Shown piece by piece: positions 1 through 47,487 of a DNA stretch of 64,000 nucleotides. Source of the stretch: a phage. A model generated the notes under the pieces. It saw only the letters and a program-made list of their open reading frames with translations, ran no database searches and was not told where the DNA came from. Position 1 is the stretch's first letter. Each line of letters opens with the position of its first letter. The translations under genes and the position numbers were made by a program. The stretch is taken from the NCBI GenBank assembly GCA_012439925.1, contig GCA_012439925.1_4519.1; one strand, given 5' to 3'.

Positions 1-2
1 AG

Positions 3-347
3 ATGTGGTGCCGTGGTATGAGCTTTGACTTCCCGATCTTGGTCGATTTGATTCGTGACCTCTATCGTGATGAAGGTGTTCTTGAACCAGATATTGATAC
101 TGATAAATTAGAACCGGTTAAATTCTGGGCTCAACGCGATATTCGTACGGCAATCGAAGCTTACTCGTTGACACGAGGATTAAGTATGTGTCCATTACCG
201 ATGGGTACGCTGAAAGGATTCGTTGCCCATGATAGTATTCACGATTGTGCTAAAGATATTTTGATGTTAAAATATGCTCAGCGTTATGCGCTTGGCCTTG
301 AAGATGTCCCTGAGAATCCTGACCCGATAAGTGTAAAACAGCGATAA
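3..347 (+). CDS. C-terminal part of a DEDDh-type exonuclease-like protein (dexA-like), partial at window edge
   Basis: ORF open to the window edge; AHDSIHD fits the H-x4-D exo III motif of DnaQ-family exonucleases; position upstream of the gene 39 region as for T4 dexA. Confidence 0.3.
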   Translation: MWCRGMSFDFPILVDLIRDLYRDEGVLEPDIDTDKLEPVKFWAQRDIRTAIEAYSLTRGLSMCPLPMGTLKGFVAHDSIHDCAKDILMLKYAQRYALGLEDVPENPDPISVKQR

Positions 348-352
348 AATCA

Positions 353-382
353 GTTTACAACCAAGGATGGTTGGAGTATAAT
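353..382 (+). promoter_or_regulatory. T4-type early promoter
   Basis: GTTTAC at 353-358, 18-bp spacer, TATAAT at 377-382; about 30 bp upstream of ORF 414. Confidence 0.55.
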
Positions 383-413
383 CTTTCTATCTTAACCAAA
401 CAGGAAAAACATT

Positions 414-908
414 ATGAATATCAATACTACGGCTACTTACATCCTGAAAGACGAAAAACAAATCAACTGGTACAGTGCTTCAGTGCGAGCTTACGAAAAG
501 TTTTGTGAAATTTTAGGTGCCACTCAAGGCAATAGTTTCACTATTGTTAACTTCATCAAACAAGCTGAAGGCCCTTGGTTATTCTTAGAAATTAAAAATT
601 CATATGGTACAATTTCTACTACCGCCCTTCCAAGCACAGACTTTGAACTGTTGATTGAAGAAGTAGAACCCGTTAAAGACATCTGTATTGATATGGATAT
701 CGCTTGTATGTACGGTACTCTGATTAAGCCTATTGAGCCTACTGATTTGTTGTGTAAATATGTTTCAATTCGACGTCCGTTCGCAGGTCCAGTAAATGGA
801 TGGGTAACTGACCAGTGGATTGAAGACGGTGTTGAACTTCTGAACGTTGTTCATGCAGGTGATTTTAGTGTAGTTCCACGTAGTGCTGTGGTTAATATCC
901 TTAATTAA
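414..908 (+). CDS. hypothetical protein, member A of a tandem paralogue family
   Basis: 164-aa ORF with RBS; C-terminal module WxxDQWIEDGxxLxNVVxxGDFxVV shared with the next two ORFs. Confidence 0.6.
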   Translation: MNINTTATYILKDEKQINWYSASVRAYEKFCEILGATQGNSFTIVNFIKQAEGPWLFLEIKNSYGTISTTALPSTDFELLIEEVEPVKDICIDMDIACMYGTLIKPIEPTDLLCKYVSIRRPFAGPVNGWVTDQWIEDGVELLNVVHAGDFSVVPRSAVVNILN

Positions 909-970
909 TGTTGTATATCCAAGGATGGATGGAGTATAATGAATTCAATTTAAACAAAGAGAGAGAAATT

Positions 971-1456
971 ATGAATCTTGGTATTATTGGTGAAATCGTT
1001 CGCGTATCTAACAAATCTCGTTCTAAAGCCGCAGGAAAATTGGTCGAAGTTGTAAGTATTCAACTTAAAGAAGGCGTTAAAGATGAAGATTCTGAGGTAA
1101 AAGTTCGTATTATTCCTAGTTTTGGGACACAGGAAACCAAATTTGCTTATGTTCGTGCAAAGTTCTTGGAAACGCCTGTGAGTAGTGCTTTTGCTTCAAG
1201 AGAAAAAGTTGAATCCACAGAGCATAATGTACAGTTCAAATGGGCCCTTTGCAAAGGCGTTGAATTCCAGACTGATAAAGAATTTGACTTCATCGATGAA
1301 TACGGTTATCCAAGCAAAACTGATACTATGTGTGGCTTCATTAGTGACCAATGGGTTGAAGATGGTGAAAAGTTATACAATATCGTATTCTTAGGTGACT
1401 TCAGAGTTGTTAAAGAATCCGAAATCACTCGTTATGTGTCTCCTCGTAAAGCTTAA
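971..1456 (+). CDS. hypothetical protein, paralogue B
   Basis: Start trimmed to MNLGIIGEI (RBS AAGAGAGAGA); shares SRSKxAGKLVEV, FKWxLC and GFISDxWVEDGxKLYNIVF motifs with ORF 1466-1885. Confidence 0.6.
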   Translation: MNLGIIGEIVRVSNKSRSKAAGKLVEVVSIQLKEGVKDEDSEVKVRIIPSFGTQETKFAYVRAKFLETPVSSAFASREKVESTEHNVQFKWALCKGVEFQTDKEFDFIDEYGYPSKTDTMCGFISDQWVEDGEKLYNIVFLGDFRVVKESEITRYVSPRKA

Positions 1457-1465
1457 GGAATTATT

Positions 1466-1885
1466 ATGAATATTGCAAATCTCTCTATTGGTGATTATGT
1501 ACACGTATCAGATGCTTCTCGCTCTAAAGTTGCTGGTAAGTTGGTTGAAGTTCTTTATGTAAGTGATCCGGTTTTTGGTCGCAATGAAGTTAAAGTTCGT
1601 GATGCTGATGGCAACATTGGTTATGTTAAAAGCCAATTCATTGAACCGGAAGAAAAATCGTTCAAATGGGGACTATGCAGATCAGTTTCTGTTGAAAAAG
1701 ACCATGAATTCACTATTGCTGCGGCAACTGATGGAACACCATGGAAAACTAAGCAAATCGCTGGATTTATTAGCGACCGTTGGGTAGAAGATGGTGTTAA
1801 GCTTTATAACATCGTTTTCGCTGGACAGTTCATGGTAGTTCCTGAATTCCAAATTAAAAAATATAGCCCGGCTGCTTTCGCATAA
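1466..1885 (+). CDS. hypothetical protein, paralogue C
   Basis: 139-aa ORF, RBS AAGGA; clear paralogue of 971-1456. Confidence 0.6.
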   Translation: MNIANLSIGDYVHVSDASRSKVAGKLVEVLYVSDPVFGRNEVKVRDADGNIGYVKSQFIEPEEKSFKWGLCRSVSVEKDHEFTIAAATDGTPWKTKQIAGFISDRWVEDGVKLYNIVFAGQFMVVPEFQIKKYSPAAFA

Positions 1886-1889
1886 AGTT

Positions 1890-1918
1890 GTTTACTTCTC
1901 CTCTGGTTTTGATATTAT
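1890..1918 (+). promoter_or_regulatory. T4-type early promoter with embedded inverted repeat
   Basis: GTTTAC 1890-1895, TATTAT 1913-1918; inverted repeat TCCTCTGGTT / AACCAGAGGA flanks the -10 and overlaps the RBS. Confidence 0.5.
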
Positions 1919-1944
1919 AACCATATCAACCAGAGGAGAATAAT

Positions 1945-2469
1945 ATGTTAGTTTACCGCGTAGAACGTAGTTTTTGTACTCAACGTGAATCATTACCAGG
2001 AATTGCCATCGAAGACGGTAAAGCCGTCAGAATTTGGGAAACCTCTTGGAATAAAGAACCTCGCTCACCTTACGGTTGGTCTGGCACTGACAACTCTGAA
2101 GAAACATGGGAGTTCCTTGATAAACATGGAATACTCTCAGGTAACTTCTACCATCACGGCGACAACTATAATGTCCCTAATCGTCCTACAGTAAATGAAG
2201 ACAAACTCCTTGAACAAAATATCTTAAGATACCATAGAATTGAGCACACATTTGAATTGAACAAAGATTGGGCTCAAGAGTTCTATTTTGGATTTGAAAG
2301 TGTTGACGCGGTTTATGCATGGTTTGATGACCAGGTGGATGTTGAACTCTTGAAAGCTAAAGGATACTACATCGCGGTCTATGAAGCACCTGATTTCATA
2401 CTCGGAAGTTGTCAATTAATGTTTAGACGTTCATTGGCAGAACAAGTTGATTTTATTTTGCTAAAATGA
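1945..2469 (+). CDS. hypothetical protein
   Basis: 174-aa ORF with strong RBS GAGGAG; no recognisable motif. Confidence 0.55.
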   Translation: MLVYRVERSFCTQRESLPGIAIEDGKAVRIWETSWNKEPRSPYGWSGTDNSEETWEFLDKHGILSGNFYHHGDNYNVPNRPTVNEDKLLEQNILRYHRIEHTFELNKDWAQEFYFGFESVDAVYAWFDDQVDVELLKAKGYYIAVYEAPDFILGSCQLMFRRSLAEQVDFILLK

Positions 2470-2526
2470 TGTACAACAACTATGGTCTATGATACTATAG
2501 ACCTATCAAAACAAGAGGAGAATATT

Positions 2527-2754
2527 ATGAAACGTCAAATCATTAAAAACGTAACTACTGATTCAAACATCGATGAGTTTGAAGATGTTCTGTTTAATCC
2601 TGATTTAGTTGTTGTACAGAAAAACTGGACCGAATTTTTATGCTACACCGAAGTGGTTTACGTTTACGAAAAACTTGGCGATGAAATGCCTATCTACGGT
2701 ATCTTCCGTGAAATCACTGAAAACGGTACAACTTATTGGAAGGAAACTTACTAA
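2527..2754 (+). CDS. hypothetical small protein
   Basis: Start trimmed to MKRQIIKN (RBS AAGAGGAG); the ORF-track start at 2482 lies inside a promoter-like hairpin. Confidence 0.5.
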
Positions 2755-3164
2755 TGGCTAATAAATTCCGCGTTAACTCATGGTACCAATTTAAAGATAA
2801 ACGTGCCCAAGAAGAGTTTATTAAGGACCACACCGATAATGGGATTTATGCACGACGTCTTGGCATGGAACCATTTAAAGTATTAGATGTTGACCATCTT
2901 GGTCGTCCTACTAAAATTGTGACATCTACTGGCATGGTTGGATACGCAACAGGCGGTGATATTCTTGATGAAAACTTTATCTGGCTCTCCACGAATGAAG
3001 CAGAGTTCTTTGACGAAGTTGGAAATCCATATCAAGCGTCTGAAGAGCAAGACTCTGGAGAACTTGATGAATTGTCTGAATTTCCGGTGATGACGATTAC
3101 TATCAAAAATAACGACCAGGCATGGTCGTTGTATCAAATGTTGAAAGCACATTTTAAGGAATAA
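2754..3164 (+). CDS. hypothetical protein
   Basis: Start at MANKFRV with GGAAGGA RBS, overlapping the previous stop (TAATG). Confidence 0.5.
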
Positions 3165-3166
3165 TA

Positions 3167-3346
3167 ATGCCGTTATACGACTATAAATGCCAATCTGAAG
3201 ATTGTGGTCATGAATATGAAAAAATTAAAAGGATTTCTGAACGAGAAAACGATGTTTGCCCTGAATGTCATTGTCTGTCTACTCGTCGGGTTTCTGCTCC
3301 TAAACATGTGAACGGTGGTTTTTACGACTTACTTAAAAAGGGTTAA
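3167..3346 (+). CDS. FmdB-like zinc-ribbon small protein (59 aa)
   Basis: Not in ORF track (<60 aa); MPLYDYKCxxxxCGH ... CPECH two-CxxC pattern typical of FmdB-type zinc ribbons; tightly packed between flanking ORFs. Confidence 0.5.
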   Translation: MPLYDYKCQSEDCGHEYEKIKRISERENDVCPECHCLSTRRVSAPKHVNGGFYDLLKKG

Positions 3347-3348
3347 TT

Positions 3349-3774
3349 ATGGCTTTTAAAGGTTTTGAAGTTGGTAAGAAATATCATATTATCAAAGGTC
3401 AAGAAGATAATTTCTTGAGAATTCTTAATACGACTGGTAAACGTCTTAATACTAATCTGCATACTACTTTATTGTCCAAAGATTTTATTGTGGAAGAGAT
3501 GATTGGTTACGGTGTTTCGGTTATTGCTGTAGAAGCCGTAGGCGATTATGGCCGAACTATTCATAGTATGCAAGGTGATATTCTGCTTTATGGTGCAGAA
3601 TTTAAATTCTTTGAAGAAGTTCAGGAACCAGATACAGCTGTCGATTTCAAAAAAGGCTCTATAGAATTTGTTGATGGTTCGGTGATCGTATCAGGCGATG
3701 TGGTCATTACAGTTAAAAGTGAACAAGGGCGTTTGGCTGCAATTGATGCACTTCAGAAAATTAAATTTAAATAA
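3349..3774 (+). CDS. hypothetical protein (occupies the goF-like position upstream of gene 39)
   Basis: 141-aa ORF; assignment is by position and size only. Confidence 0.45.
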   Translation: MAFKGFEVGKKYHIIKGQEDNFLRILNTTGKRLNTNLHTTLLSKDFIVEEMIGYGVSVIAVEAVGDYGRTIHSMQGDILLYGAEFKFFEEVQEPDTAVDFKKGSIEFVDGSVIVSGDVVITVKSEQGRLAAIDALQKIKFK

Positions 3775-3795
3775 GGGCTTCGGCCCTTTTTGCTT
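3775..3795 (+). terminator. intrinsic terminator
   Basis: GGGCttcgGCCC hairpin followed by TTTTT. Confidence 0.65.
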
Positions 3796-3837
3796 TAGAT
3801 TTCGGATGATAGAATACCTTCATAACGAGGAGACAAC

Positions 3838-5655
3838 ATGATTAAAAATGAAATTAAGGTATTGTCAGATGTAGAACATATTAAGAAACGTAGTGGTATG
3901 TATATTGGTTCTTCTGCTAAAGAAGCCCACGAGCGTTTTTTGTTTGGTAAATATCAACAAGTTGAATATGTTCCTGGTCTGGTTAAATTAATCGATGAGA
4001 TTATTGACAACTCGGTTGATGAAGCTATTCGTACATCATTTAAGTTTGCAAATAAAATTGATGTGCAAATTAAAAATAATCAAGTTTCGGTGGAAGATAA
4101 CGGACGTGGTATTCCTCAAGGTTTAGTTACCGACCAAACAGGTGAACAAATTCCTGGGCCTGTAGCAGCCTGGACTATTCCAAAGGCCGGTGGTAACTTT
4201 GGCGATGACTCTGAACGCAAGACTGGTGGTATGAACGGCGTCGGGAGTAGTTTAACTAATATCTTCTCCACGTTGTTTACAGGCATCACGTCAGATGGTG
4301 AAAATGAAATCACTGTTAACTGTTCAAACGGAATGGAAAACAAATCATGGTCTTCTAAGAAATCTAAAGGTAAAGGCACTAAAGTAATCTTCACTCCTGA
4401 TTTCACTTCATTTGAAGAGCATAATTTATCTCAAATTTATTTAGATATTACTTTAGACCGACTTCAAACATTGGCAGTCGTTTATCCTGATATCAAGTTC
4501 ACATTTAATGGTAAAAAGGTTGATGGTAATTTTAAACGATTTGCTAAACAATTTGGTGAAGATAACATCATTCAAGAAAATGATAAAGTCTCTATAGCAT
4601 TCACAACATCACCAGATGGCTTCCGTCATTTAACTTATGTGAATAACATCCATACTAAAAATGGTGGTCATCATGTTGAATGTGTAATGGATGATATCTG
4701 CGAACATCTTTTGCCCGGTATTAAAAAGAAATATAAGGGTATTGAAGTCACTAAAGCTCGTGTTAAAGAATGTCTCACAATGTTGATGTTTATTAGAGAC
4801 ATGAGCAACATGCGTTTTGATTCTCAGACTAAAGAACGTTTAACGTCAACGTATGGTGATATTCGTAATCATATCCAATTAGATGCTAAGAAAATTGCTC
4901 AGGCGCTTCTTAAAAACGAAGCCTTGATTATGCCTATTGTTGAAGCAGCATTAGCTCGTAAATTGGCGGCAGAAAAGGCTGCAGAAACTAAAGCAGCTAA
5001 AAAGGCAACTAAAGCTAAGGTTCATAAGCATATTAAAGCTAACCAATGTGGTAAAGATGCAGATACGACATTGTTCTTAACAGAAGGTGATTCGGCAATT
5101 GGATATCTCATTGATGTTCGTGACCGTGAACTACACGGTGGATTCCCATTACGTGGTAAGGTGATGAATAGCTGGGGTATGTCATATGCTGATATGATGA
5201 AGAACAAAGAGCTCTTTGATATCTGTGCTATCACAGGTCTTATTCTTGGTGAAAAGGCAGAGAATACGAACTATCGTAATATTGCAATTATGACTGATGC
5301 CGATCATGACGGCCTTGGAAGTATTTATCCTGCTTTGCTTGCTTTCTTTAGTAATTGGCCTGAATTGTTTGAACAAGGACGTATTCGCTTTGTTAAAACA
5401 CCTGTAATTATTGCACAAATTGGCAAAACTCAAAAATGGTTTTATACTGTAGCTGAGTATGAAGAAGTTAAAGATACGCTGCCTAAGCATAGTATTCGAT
5501 ACATCAAGGGATTAGGCTCCCTTGAAAAGTCAGAGTATCGTGAAATGATTCAGAACCCTGTGTACGACGTAGTTAAACTTCCTGAAAATTGGAAAGAACT
5601 CTTTGAAATGTTGTTGGGTGATGATTCAGAACTTCGTAAAGAATGGATGTCCTAA
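3838..5655 (+). CDS. 39: DNA topoisomerase II large subunit (GyrB-like ATPase plus Toprim), single fused ORF
   Basis: 605 aa; GHKL ATPase motifs (DNSVDEAI, VEDNGRGIP) and Toprim (TEGDSA, MTDADHDG); T4 gp39 plus gp60 equivalent in one ORF. Confidence 0.9.
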   Translation: MIKNEIKVLSDVEHIKKRSGMYIGSSAKEAHERFLFGKYQQVEYVPGLVKLIDEIIDNSVDEAIRTSFKFANKIDVQIKNNQVSVEDNGRGIPQGLVTDQTGEQIPGPVAAWTIPKAGGNFGDDSERKTGGMNGVGSSLTNIFSTLFTGITSDGENEITVNCSNGMENKSWSSKKSKGKGTKVIFTPDFTSFEEHNLSQIYLDITLDRLQTLAVVYPDIKFTFNGKKVDGNFKRFAKQFGEDNIIQENDKVSIAFTTSPDGFRHLTYVNNIHTKNGGHHVECVMDDICEHLLPGIKKKYKGIEVTKARVKECLTMLMFIRDMSNMRFDSQTKERLTSTYGDIRNHIQLDAKKIAQALLKNEALIMPIVEAALARKLAAEKAAETKAAKKATKAKVHKHIKANQCGKDADTTLFLTEGDSAIGYLIDVRDRELHGGFPLRGKVMNSWGMSYADMMKNKELFDICAITGLILGEKAENTNYRNIAIMTDADHDGLGSIYPALLAFFSNWPELFEQGRIRFVKTPVIIAQIGKTQKWFYTVAEYEEVKDTLPKHSIRYIKGLGSLEKSEYREMIQNPVYDVVKLPENWKELFEMLLGDDSELRKEWMS

Positions 5656-39978: not shown

Positions 39979-40193
39979 CTAAAGAACAGCATGAATACAT
40001 TAAAGGGCTTATCTATGAATCTGAAATGGCGGCTATGATTTATGGGCGCCAGATTCAACGATTAGAATCTTTGCCTCCGACTAATGACCGCTTGTTAGTT
40101 CAGTCTCGTGCTAATCTGAAAAATGAATATCAGAATAAGTGGGCAGTAGCGACTAAAGCTCTTCACGAGTATATTGAATCTTTAGTAAAATAG
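39969..40193 (+). CDS. hypothetical small protein
   Basis: 74-aa ORF overlapping the o-spanin stop. Confidence 0.45.
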   Translation: MPMTKEQHEYIKGLIYESEMAAMIYGRQIQRLESLPPTNDRLLVQSRANLKNEYQNKWAVATKALHEYIESLVK

Positions 40194-40228
40194 TTTACAA
40201 ACTCTCAGGAGCAGAGTATAATGCTCCT
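40193..40228 (+). promoter_or_regulatory. T4-type early promoter with inverted repeat around TATAAT
   Basis: GTTTAC 40193-40198, TATAAT 40217-40222, inverted repeat AGGAGCA / TGCTCCT; near-copy of 11870-11906. Confidence 0.55.
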
Positions 40229-40250
40229 ATGGATAATTGAGGAAATCTAA

Positions 40251-46818: not shown

Positions 46819-47433
46819 ATGTTTAAAGTTAATACTTTTTATAAAATGAATTTTAAAAATGGGGATATTACTCCACGCCTTAAAAACATGTTCTCATATG
46901 ACCTTATCGAGCCTTTTGAAGTTTTAGAAGTTACTGATGCTGGCTCAGTTTGTGAAATTAGAACTTCTGAAGGTAAAATTTATCAGGCTGGTGTTGGTAA
47001 ATTCAGTAATTGTTTTACTTTAATATTCTCGACTGATTTAGATGAGCATTTTATTGAATGTCCTAACCCTAAGGTCCATGAAGTTCCACAACAAGAAACT
47101 AAGAAAAATGGCCCGCATGAATATACGAAGGTTGAAACTCCTCACGGCGATATGTGGCGTCATAACTCTCCTTTCGGAAGTAAAGGAACATTTGCTCAAC
47201 TGCCTAAACCGTATGACGATGAAAAATACATCGTCGCCTTTTTATCTGAACAGGGTACTCAAGACCGTGGATGTCAACGAAGTGGTTTACTAAGTGAACT
47301 TGAAGCTCATAACCAAGCACGTGAATTCGTTGAGAAAAATCCTGGTTCTGAAGCTCTAGTCATGAAAGCAATTACTCAATATATCACTGCTCAACCTGTT
47401 GTTCATCCGGTAGAAATTAATTTCATTAAGTAG
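46819..47433 (+). CDS. hypothetical protein
   Basis: Start trimmed to MFKVNTFYK (RBS GAGGAAA); 204 aa. Confidence 0.5.
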   Translation: MFKVNTFYKMNFKNGDITPRLKNMFSYDLIEPFEVLEVTDAGSVCEIRTSEGKIYQAGVGKFSNCFTLIFSTDLDEHFIECPNPKVHEVPQQETKKNGPHEYTKVETPHGDMWRHNSPFGSKGTFAQLPKPYDDEKYIVAFLSEQGTQDRGCQRSGLLSELEAHNQAREFVEKNPGSEALVMKAITQYITAQPVVHPVEINFIK

Positions 47434-47463
47434 TTTACATCCAAGGACGGATTAGAGTATAAT
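47434..47463 (+). promoter_or_regulatory. T4-type early promoter
   Basis: GTTTAC 47434-47439, 18-bp spacer, TATAAT 47458-47463; similar to the cassette at 353. Confidence 0.55.
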
Positions 47464-47487
47464 GATTTCTTTAGTAAGTGGAAAAAT

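Follow-up and report, generated by a model that had tools for sequence, protein, structure and literature searches.

A motB.1-type/motB/second-motB gene array in an RB69-like phage genome and the predicted SH3-like barrel common to its products

We analyzed three consecutive small genes near the start of a 64-kb stretch of phage DNA (contig GCA_012439925.1_4519.1; the whole stretch is hereafter called the window). By sequence comparison, we identified the locus as the motB.1-type / motB / second-motB array of a Mosigvirus, an RB69-like T-even phage; it is located between dexA and the topoisomerase gene, in a region that is transcribed early. The first open reading frame, ORF1 (414-908, 164 amino acids [aa]), is of the MotB.1 type, ORF2 (971-1456, 161 aa) is the MotB orthologue, and ORF3 (1466-1885, 139 aa) is a second, shorter MotB paralogue of the RB69ORF010c type. 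An initial annotation of the window had called these three ORFs; they were found on the + strand at the positions given, and the peptides it quoted were present verbatim. It had also described them as tandem paralogues in an early region, which agrees well with the dexA-to-topoisomerase interval of a T-even phage; what it missed was the identity of the family, which is known and annotated (PF17613, RefSeq).

The identification is based on several concordant observations. The first 4 kb of the window was 98.9% identical to Shigella phage Shf125875 (NC_025437; Mosigvirus, RB69 group), in which the counterparts of ORF1, ORF2 and ORF3 are labeled "similar to RB69 motB.1", "MotB-like transcriptional regulator (RB69 motB)" and "MotB-like (RB69ORF010c)", respectively. 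The Pfam and PHROG assignments were in agreement, and ORF2 was 58% identical to T4 MotB (E 1e-60). The array occupies the dexA-cef early interval of a Tevenvirinae genome, which is the location of the MotB family, and the gene order in the window is dexA / ORF1-3 / motB.2 / cef / goF / 39.2 / topoisomerase. A matching dexA...cef context was seen in 26 related loci. Gene content and order were identical in RB69 (NC_004928) and Shf125875, in keeping with the published RB69 arrangement. T4, on the other hand, has a single motB, preceded by motB.2, then motB.1, whereas in the window motB is followed by the second copy and motB.2 lies downstream of the array.

Patterson-West et al. 2021 (PMC7827196) found a common C-terminal domain and different N-terminal domains in MotB and MotB.1, proposed that one of the two is possibly the product of a duplication of the other, and listed two motB genes, one motB.1 and a 29-aa peptide ("category 3") in RB69. 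Since the common domain and the RB69 gene set were already described in that study, our finding is a rediscovery: the family, its C-terminal domain and the exact three-gene RB69-type arrangement are already known from the literature and RefSeq, and as a discovery it is of low importance. We put the probability at roughly 0.8 that this identity, a T4 MotB-like role for ORF2 and a model in which basic N-terminal heads are carried on a common adaptor barrel jointly give the best explanation of the locus.

The common C-terminal domain and the three proteins

The initial annotation had named a non-significant alignment of the C-terminal motif as grounds for abandoning the relationship, and the pairwise BLASTP alignments proved to be highly significant. 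ORF1 and ORF2 had 16 of 36 residues identical (44%, E 3e-10), ORF1 matched ORF3 with an E-value of 9e-11, and ORF2 and ORF3 were 42% identical across their full length (E 7e-31). All three ORFs exceeded the 25-bit gathering score of the Pfam model PF17613 ("motB"): ORF2 scored 182 bits, ORF3 81.5 bits and ORF1 35.3 bits, the last through residues 84-159 in the C-terminal part only. Alignment with diverse homologues indicated that the common unit is a complete domain of ~57-73 aa, at residues 108-164 of ORF1, 89-161 of ORF2 and 66-139 of ORF3 (window 735-905, 1235-1453 and 1661-1882, respectively). The relatedness claimed initially for a C-terminal module was therefore confirmed by these E-values, and the size of "about 30 aa" given for it corresponds to the most conserved core of the domain. 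This core reads [WFY]-[VI]-[TS]-D-[QR]-W-[IV]-E-D-G-x-x-L-x-N-[IV]-V-x-x-G-x-[FY]-x-V in all three ORFs, and its D, W, E, G, L, N, V, G and V columns were invariant in 25-27 diverse members. A domain profile, itself built with these three copies, found no copy beyond ORF1-3 in the 64-kb window, and profile A1 gave only two chance-level matches among the PDB sequences (E 0.34 and 0.87).

ORF2 consists of a basic KOW-like N-terminal domain (residues 1-66; isoelectric point [pI] 9.7), a disordered linker and the C-terminal domain. It matches T4 MotB in length, in two-domain layout and in its early-region position upstream of cef, and differs from it in overall charge (whole-protein pI 5.6, acidic, versus 9.2). 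Its start is ambiguous, with in-frame ATGs at 908, 929 and 971; the alignment with T4 MotB favours 971, and the RefSeq start for the counterpart in the near-identical phage is 929. ORF3 is 39% identical to T4 MotB and combines a KOW-like N-terminal domain with a very short linker and the C-terminal domain. The motif V-S-x-x-S-R-S-K-x-A-G-K of the KOW-like domain is found in both ORF2 and ORF3. Close homologues of ORF3 (81-93% identity) were all 139 aa long, and the named ones all came from Mosigvirus-type phages.

ORF1 matched PHROG 2333 over its full length (1-164; 1.3e-82), which places it in the MotB.1 subfamily, and was 46% identical (E 1e-46) to a full-length 143-aa T4-type MotB.1 (P0011). 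The basic KOW-like domain with its V-S-x-x-S-R-S-K-x-A-G-K motif is absent from ORF1; an N-terminal domain of the MotB.1 kind (residues 1-88) takes its place, and the whole protein has a pI of 4.5. Kim et al. 2025 (PMC12152347) described the N-terminal domain of MotB.1 as LSm-like and grouped it in one family with GoF and Frd.2. When we aligned the MotB.1-type N-terminal domains with the GoF alignment by hhalign, the match had a probability of 21% (E 0.0011). T4 MotB.1 has the same C-terminal domain as ORF1, and ORF1 differs from it by an extra 20-aa linker segment that carries the motif D-M-D-I-A-C-M-Y-G-T-L-I-K-P (DMDIACMYGTLIKP; residues 93-106, window 690-731) in a linker of low confidence. 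The T4-type MotB.1 lacks this motif. Its position varies in the family: it was seen at the N-terminus of, for example, P0030, P0037 and P0038, and in the linker of the single-copy KOW-type members P0058, P0065, P0173, P0175 and P0183. The motif may be a docking peptide.

Predicted fold and the proposed role of the MotB proteins

T4 MotB is an abundant, early-made protein that binds tightly to DNA, whether normal or modified, shows no sequence preference and is toxic in E. coli; it alters the H-NS footprint, 75 host genes are up, about one third of them in the H-NS regulon, and burst size is doubled (PMC6070864, PMC7827196). It co-purifies with H-NS and StpA solely in the presence of DNA (PMC7827196). 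We assign this role to ORF2 by homology, and more weakly to ORF3. By analogy with T4 MotB, ORF2 would be made in quantity soon after infection, would coat DNA without sequence preference and would alter the seating of the host silencer H-NS (and StpA) on the DNA, such that H-NS-silenced loci would be de-repressed and the phage yield would rise. T7 gp5.5 and T4 Arn are phage H-NS antagonists that bind H-NS directly. The purpose proposed for MotB is the same, namely early relief or remodelling of H-NS silencing, whereas MotB is seen with H-NS only if DNA is present and has no sequence relationship to either protein.

The AlphaFold2 (AF2) model of ORF2 had a mean predicted local distance difference test score (pLDDT) of 80.7 and contained two beta-barrel domains, between which residues 70-85 had a pLDDT below 50. 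In the AF2 model of the isolated C-terminal domain, residues 41-78 reached a pLDDT of 88-95; strands were placed at 30-33, 41-51, 54-61, 64-69 and 73-77, the last two being separated by a helical turn. The structural neighbours of the models were SH3-like small barrels of the Tudor, chromo, PWWP and KOW classes, and the full-length MotB model agreed. On the basis of these models, the shared domain is predicted to be a five-stranded SH3-like barrel of the Tudor/chromo/KOW kind. Sequence identity to such barrels was only 9-19%, so that the likeness is one of fold alone and we do not claim membership; the relatives are mostly eukaryotic chromatin readers or universal transcription/translation factors.

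The two halves of the proteins differ in charge. The N-terminal domains of the MotB proteins had a pI of 9.7-9.8 and the C-terminal domains a pI of 4.6-8.1 (4.6-4.7 in ORF1 and ORF2), and the invariant surface-type residues of the domain are acidic, being the D, E and D of the D-x-W-x-E-D-G motif. Because of these charges, the low pI of the whole of ORF1 and the invariant acidic residues, we propose that the basic KOW-like N-terminal domain, with the linker, would be the main contact with DNA and that the conserved, acidic-to-neutral C-terminal barrel would serve as a common adaptor through which the proteins either self-associate or dock on a shared partner. The C-terminal domain was found joined to at least four unrelated N-terminal regions, and the three paralogues would bring different N-terminal heads to one place. 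An SH3/Tudor-type, non-basic domain means that the DNA-binding role likely moves to the N-terminal KOW-like domain.

Several points weigh against this model. The published assignment of the MotB C-terminal domain, made with HHpred, is an OB-fold able to bind DNA (PMC7827196), and several SH3-like relatives, such as PWWP and some Tudor domains, are DNA binders too. In laboratory strains, deletion and amber mutants of T4 motB.1 showed no phenotype, and an RNA reporter with the gene 41 5' untranslated region did not respond to MotB.1 (PMC12152347). A contact between MotB and H-NS independent of DNA was looked for and none was found (PMC7827196), which argues against H-NS as a direct partner of the C-terminal domain. 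In addition, ORF3 is at only 39% identity to T4 MotB and ORF1 shares just the C-terminal domain with it.

The alternative that the C-terminal domain is itself a DNA-binding OB-fold of the cold-shock type, with all three paralogues coating DNA and the N-terminal domains modulating this activity, is unlikely in our judgment, although the HHpred-based assignment and the tight binding of MotB to DNA favour it, as do nucleic acid-binding neighbours of the models (a PWWP domain with single-stranded DNA and the MTF2 Tudor domain with DNA). The model of the C-terminal domain did not show the combination of OB topology and cold-shock/OB structural neighbours, and its helical turn precedes strand 5 and follows strand 4, which is the arrangement of SH3-like barrels. 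An acidic domain in ORF1 and ORF2, the acidity of ORF1 as a whole and the invariant exposed D, E and D also speak against this alternative.

A narrower form of the adaptor model, which we regard as rather doubtful, would make the C-terminal barrel a Tudor/chromo-like reader that docks through the invariant acidic D-x-W-x-E-D-G hairpin on one host nucleoid component, for example filaments of H-NS/StpA or some other abundant, basic protein bound to DNA. If this were true, RB69-like phages would present basic KOW, neutral KOW and acidic LSm-like heads to one target, and the array would act as a small set of phage tools with which bacterial chromatin is remodelled rather than as three redundant DNA binders.

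It is improbable that the proteins act on RNA instead of DNA, with the family tuning the stability or translation of early mRNA. KOW, LSm-like and Tudor-like barrels are frequent in RNA-handling proteins, the fold neighbours included Spt5/NusG KOW, SMN Tudor, Xrn1 and Ski2 domains and ribosomal proteins, and the LSm-like description of the MotB.1 N-terminal domain (PMC12152347) would fit as well. On the other side, the gene 41 reporter was unaffected by MotB.1 (PMC12152347), knock-down of motB barely altered T4 RNA levels (PMC6070864), and direct DNA binding by MotB has been demonstrated.

Distribution, selection and history of the family

A tblastn search found the family in 792 phage records, and the names listed were those of T4-like phages of enterobacteria. 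Across 24 IMG/VR loci and T4, the family was always located between dexA and cef. A copy-number comparison, which the initial annotation had suggested, gave 1-3 copies at this locus across T4-like phages: three in the Mosigvirus loci, two in most others including T4, and one in seven more distant loci. The gene at the "MotB.1 position" had at least three unrelated kinds of N-terminal region, and the motB.2 side was variable. An exhaustive profile search of 1.84 billion representatives matched 28 clusters, two of which were repetitive and surface-protein-like and were regarded as spurious; the remaining clusters whose sequences were read were all small MotB-type proteins, most of them with a KOW-like N-terminus. 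Since a KOW-like N-terminus is found in most of these proteins, the combination of KOW and C-terminal domain looks ancestral and the architecture of ORF1 looks like a later domain swap. We also considered derivation of the module from a cellular family and dropped it, as no bacterial or eukaryotic relative was seen in the same profile search.

We estimated the ratio of nonsynonymous to synonymous substitutions (dN/dS) by the simple Nei-Gojobori method against three related loci; a fourth, L001, was too close to be informative. The ortholog dN/dS was 0.14 for ORF1, 0.13-0.31 for ORF2 and 0.02-0.24 for ORF3, and that of the neighbours dexA, cef, goF and 39.2 was 0.06-0.31. Between paralogues, synonymous divergence was saturated: dS was 1.3 for ORF2 versus ORF3 and not computable for the C-terminal domain of ORF1 versus either. 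These values indicate that the three genes are old, functional and under purifying selection. The description of the paralogues as "diversifying" is therefore unsupported, given a dN/dS in the range of the neighbouring genes and the age of the paralogues.

The dS of ORF2 was ~0.6 versus L004 and L005, where that of the flanking genes was ~0.1. The raised dS of ORF2 together with chimeric proteins points to recombination between alleles and paralogues. Three proteins from short metagenomic contigs (P0147, P0149 and P0151) are apparent chimeras of a MotB-type N-terminal half and an ORF3-type C-terminal half, and they look like the form expected from unequal recombination between tandem paralogues.

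The initial annotation had suggested host takeover or anti-defence for the array. Host takeover holds for ORF2 by homology, T4 MotB being a protein of that type, and no evidence for anti-defence was found in the family libraries and papers covered. We consider it improbable that the array is an arms-race family whose paralogues diversify so as to escape or block host defence proteins that vary. Such a family would account for one to three copies at one locus in a non-essential early region, for the N-terminal domain having been swapped several times, and for the mosaic alleles, namely the divergent ORF2 between conserved flanks and the three ORF2/ORF3-like chimeras. However, every ortholog pair had a dN/dS of 0.02-0.31, which does not exceed that of dexA, cef, goF and 39.2, the paralogues are ancient with saturated dS, and the known activity of MotB concerns nucleoid proteins. 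The papers retrieved mention no anti-defence activity, and no anti-defence link turned up in Pfam, PHROGs or NCBIfam. Finally, the idea that the C-terminal likeness is due to chance or low complexity and that the ORFs are unrelated genes is practically untenable, in view of E-values of 3e-10 to 7e-31, a curated Pfam model passed by all three ORFs, homologues in 792 phage records and purifying selection.

Reference motB.1 records, promoter-like repeat and neighbouring genes

Comparison of the window with the reference records revealed frameshifts in motB.1. The T4 record NC_000866.4 (L002, 4292-4310, minus strand; record ~7305, window ~825) has one extra G in motB.1 relative to the window. The T4 reference MotB.1 is 119 aa long, ends in ...GWVTDQWIGRWR and stops inside the common domain, the remainder of which is intact in the next frame; without the extra G it ends in EDGVELLNVVHAGEYSVVPRSAVVAILN and is 143 aa long. 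An 80-nt probe matched 80/80 only in AF158101.6 and NC_000866.4 and showed a one-base gap in eleven other T4 records (plus RB55 and RB59), and the 143-aa MotB.1 was present on 256 contigs. Since the frameshift is confined to the T4 reference sequence, the ~13.8 kDa MotB.1 studied in PMC12152347 is, on this sequence evidence, without most of the common domain. The 119-aa T4 MotB.1 is thus apparently truncated by one extra reference base, and assays in which it gave negative results may have to be redone with the 143-aa form.

The RB69 reference record NC_004928.1 (L027, 2877-3373, minus strand; window 740-908) has two single-T insertions inside motB.1 that split the gene into RB69p013 and the 29-aa RB69p012, the "category 3" peptide of Patterson-West 2021, while the copy in the window is intact. 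The insertions were found only in the two RB69 reference records, and 66 related records matched with two gaps. They are probably a sequencing error or a stock-specific mutation, and RB69p012 is probably no separate mini-gene. In two metagenome-derived loci (L007, 3709-4225, and L004, 1-392), a motB.1-type gene was broken or had its N-terminal part on the opposite strand, which could be due to assembly errors or to recurrent loss of the gene.

Upstream of ORF1 we located an early-type sigma-70 promoter-like element on the + strand (353-382), with GTTTAC at 353-358, an N18 spacer and TATAAT at 377-382. A second promoter-like element precedes ORF2 (910-940, + strand), with TATAAT at 935-940 and a weak -35. 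Both contain the 22-mer CCAAGGATGGNTGGAGTATAAT, of the form CCAAGGATGG(T/A)TGGAGTATAAT (copy 1 at 361-382 and copy 2 at 919-940), so that the same element does stand before the first two ORFs as described initially. The 22-mer occurs twice in the 64 kb with a 21/22 match and has no other site within 3 mismatches; no match at all is expected in shuffled sequence. Over a longer stretch of 48 nt (356-403 versus 914-961), the two copies are 75% identical. A generic sigma-70 scan of positions 1-4000 ranked the site before ORF1 (354-382) best, with 11/12 positions; it returned 11 sites versus 13.2 in shuffles, thus no excess, and only the 354-382 site is meaningful. The 22-mer was present at both positions in the Mosigvirus loci L001, L003 and L005 and at the second position only in L004, which is cut upstream of ORF1; none of the 22 other T4-like loci examined, among them T4, had it. 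Constraint on the second copy is weak, because its -10 is damaged to TATAGT or TATAGC in L003 and L004.

The claim that the duplication had included regulatory DNA is doubtful. With a 21/22 match beside coding sequence saturated at silent sites, the 22-mer cannot be a passive relic of the original gene duplication, and we rejected that origin. The 22-mer is confined to Mosigvirus loci, and the site at 47433 has a similar spacer. We rejected in part a mere generic T-even early promoter consensus, there being one similar-spacer site (47433) and 22 non-Mosigvirus loci without the 22-mer. Later lineage-specific copying or conversion of the predicted promoter repeat, or shared constraint on one promoter class, is more likely. 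Further early-type promoter-like sites of the form GTTTAC-N18/19-TATAAT are located at 47433-47475 and 40193-40234, and the spacer of the former (ATCCAAGGACGGATTAGAG) resembles the 22-mer found before ORF1 and ORF2.

A perfect 13-nt inverted repeat (1896-1908 / 1928-1940) lies between ORF3 and motB.2, a 174-aa ORF on the + strand (1945-2469); as RNA, its folding free energy is -24.9 kcal/mol (z -5.5). The 3' arm of this hairpin (1896-1940) contains the GAGGAG ribosome-binding site of motB.2, and its loop holds the -10 TATTAT (1913-1918) of a GTTTAC-type promoter-like site. The predicted hairpin would mask the motB.2 ribosome-binding site in read-through transcripts and leave it free in transcripts begun inside the hairpin. 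GGAG, the kind of sequence that RegB cuts, is present in this ribosome-binding site. We compared these elements with the promoter-early stem-loop (PeSL) cassettes, in whose literature RB69 was not found to be treated: no stem-loop adjoins the promoter-like 22-mer, and the 1889-1940 unit has both a stem-loop and a promoter-like site, but interleaved. A 20-nt direct repeat (1928-1947 / 2510-2529, 90% identical) covers the ribosome-binding site and ATG of both motB.2 and cef and so flanks motB.2, and the 5' arm of the hairpin (1896-1914) is 95% complementary to 2504-2522. The direct repeat may mark relocation of a cassette, as T4 motB.2 is on the other side of the motB genes.

At the start of the window is the 3' end of dexA (3-347, + strand). 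Downstream of motB.2, all on the + strand, are cef, goF, a zinc-ribbon ORF, a goF-like ORF and, from 3838, the large topoisomerase subunit. An NCBIfam search with four ORFs gave no family for any of them, and an Rfam scan of positions 1-4000 gave a single sub-threshold Y_RNA match that was judged to be chance. goF (2754-3164) and the goF-like ORF (3349-3774, 141 aa, RB69ORF005c type) form a second nearby pair of paralogues, both matching PHROG 622. The 141-aa ORF also matched the MotB.1 PHROG 2333 weakly (5.9e-4), and the pair is consistent with the GoF/MotB.1/Frd.2 family of Kim et al. 2025. At the position of this goF-like ORF, T4 has the much shorter 39.1.

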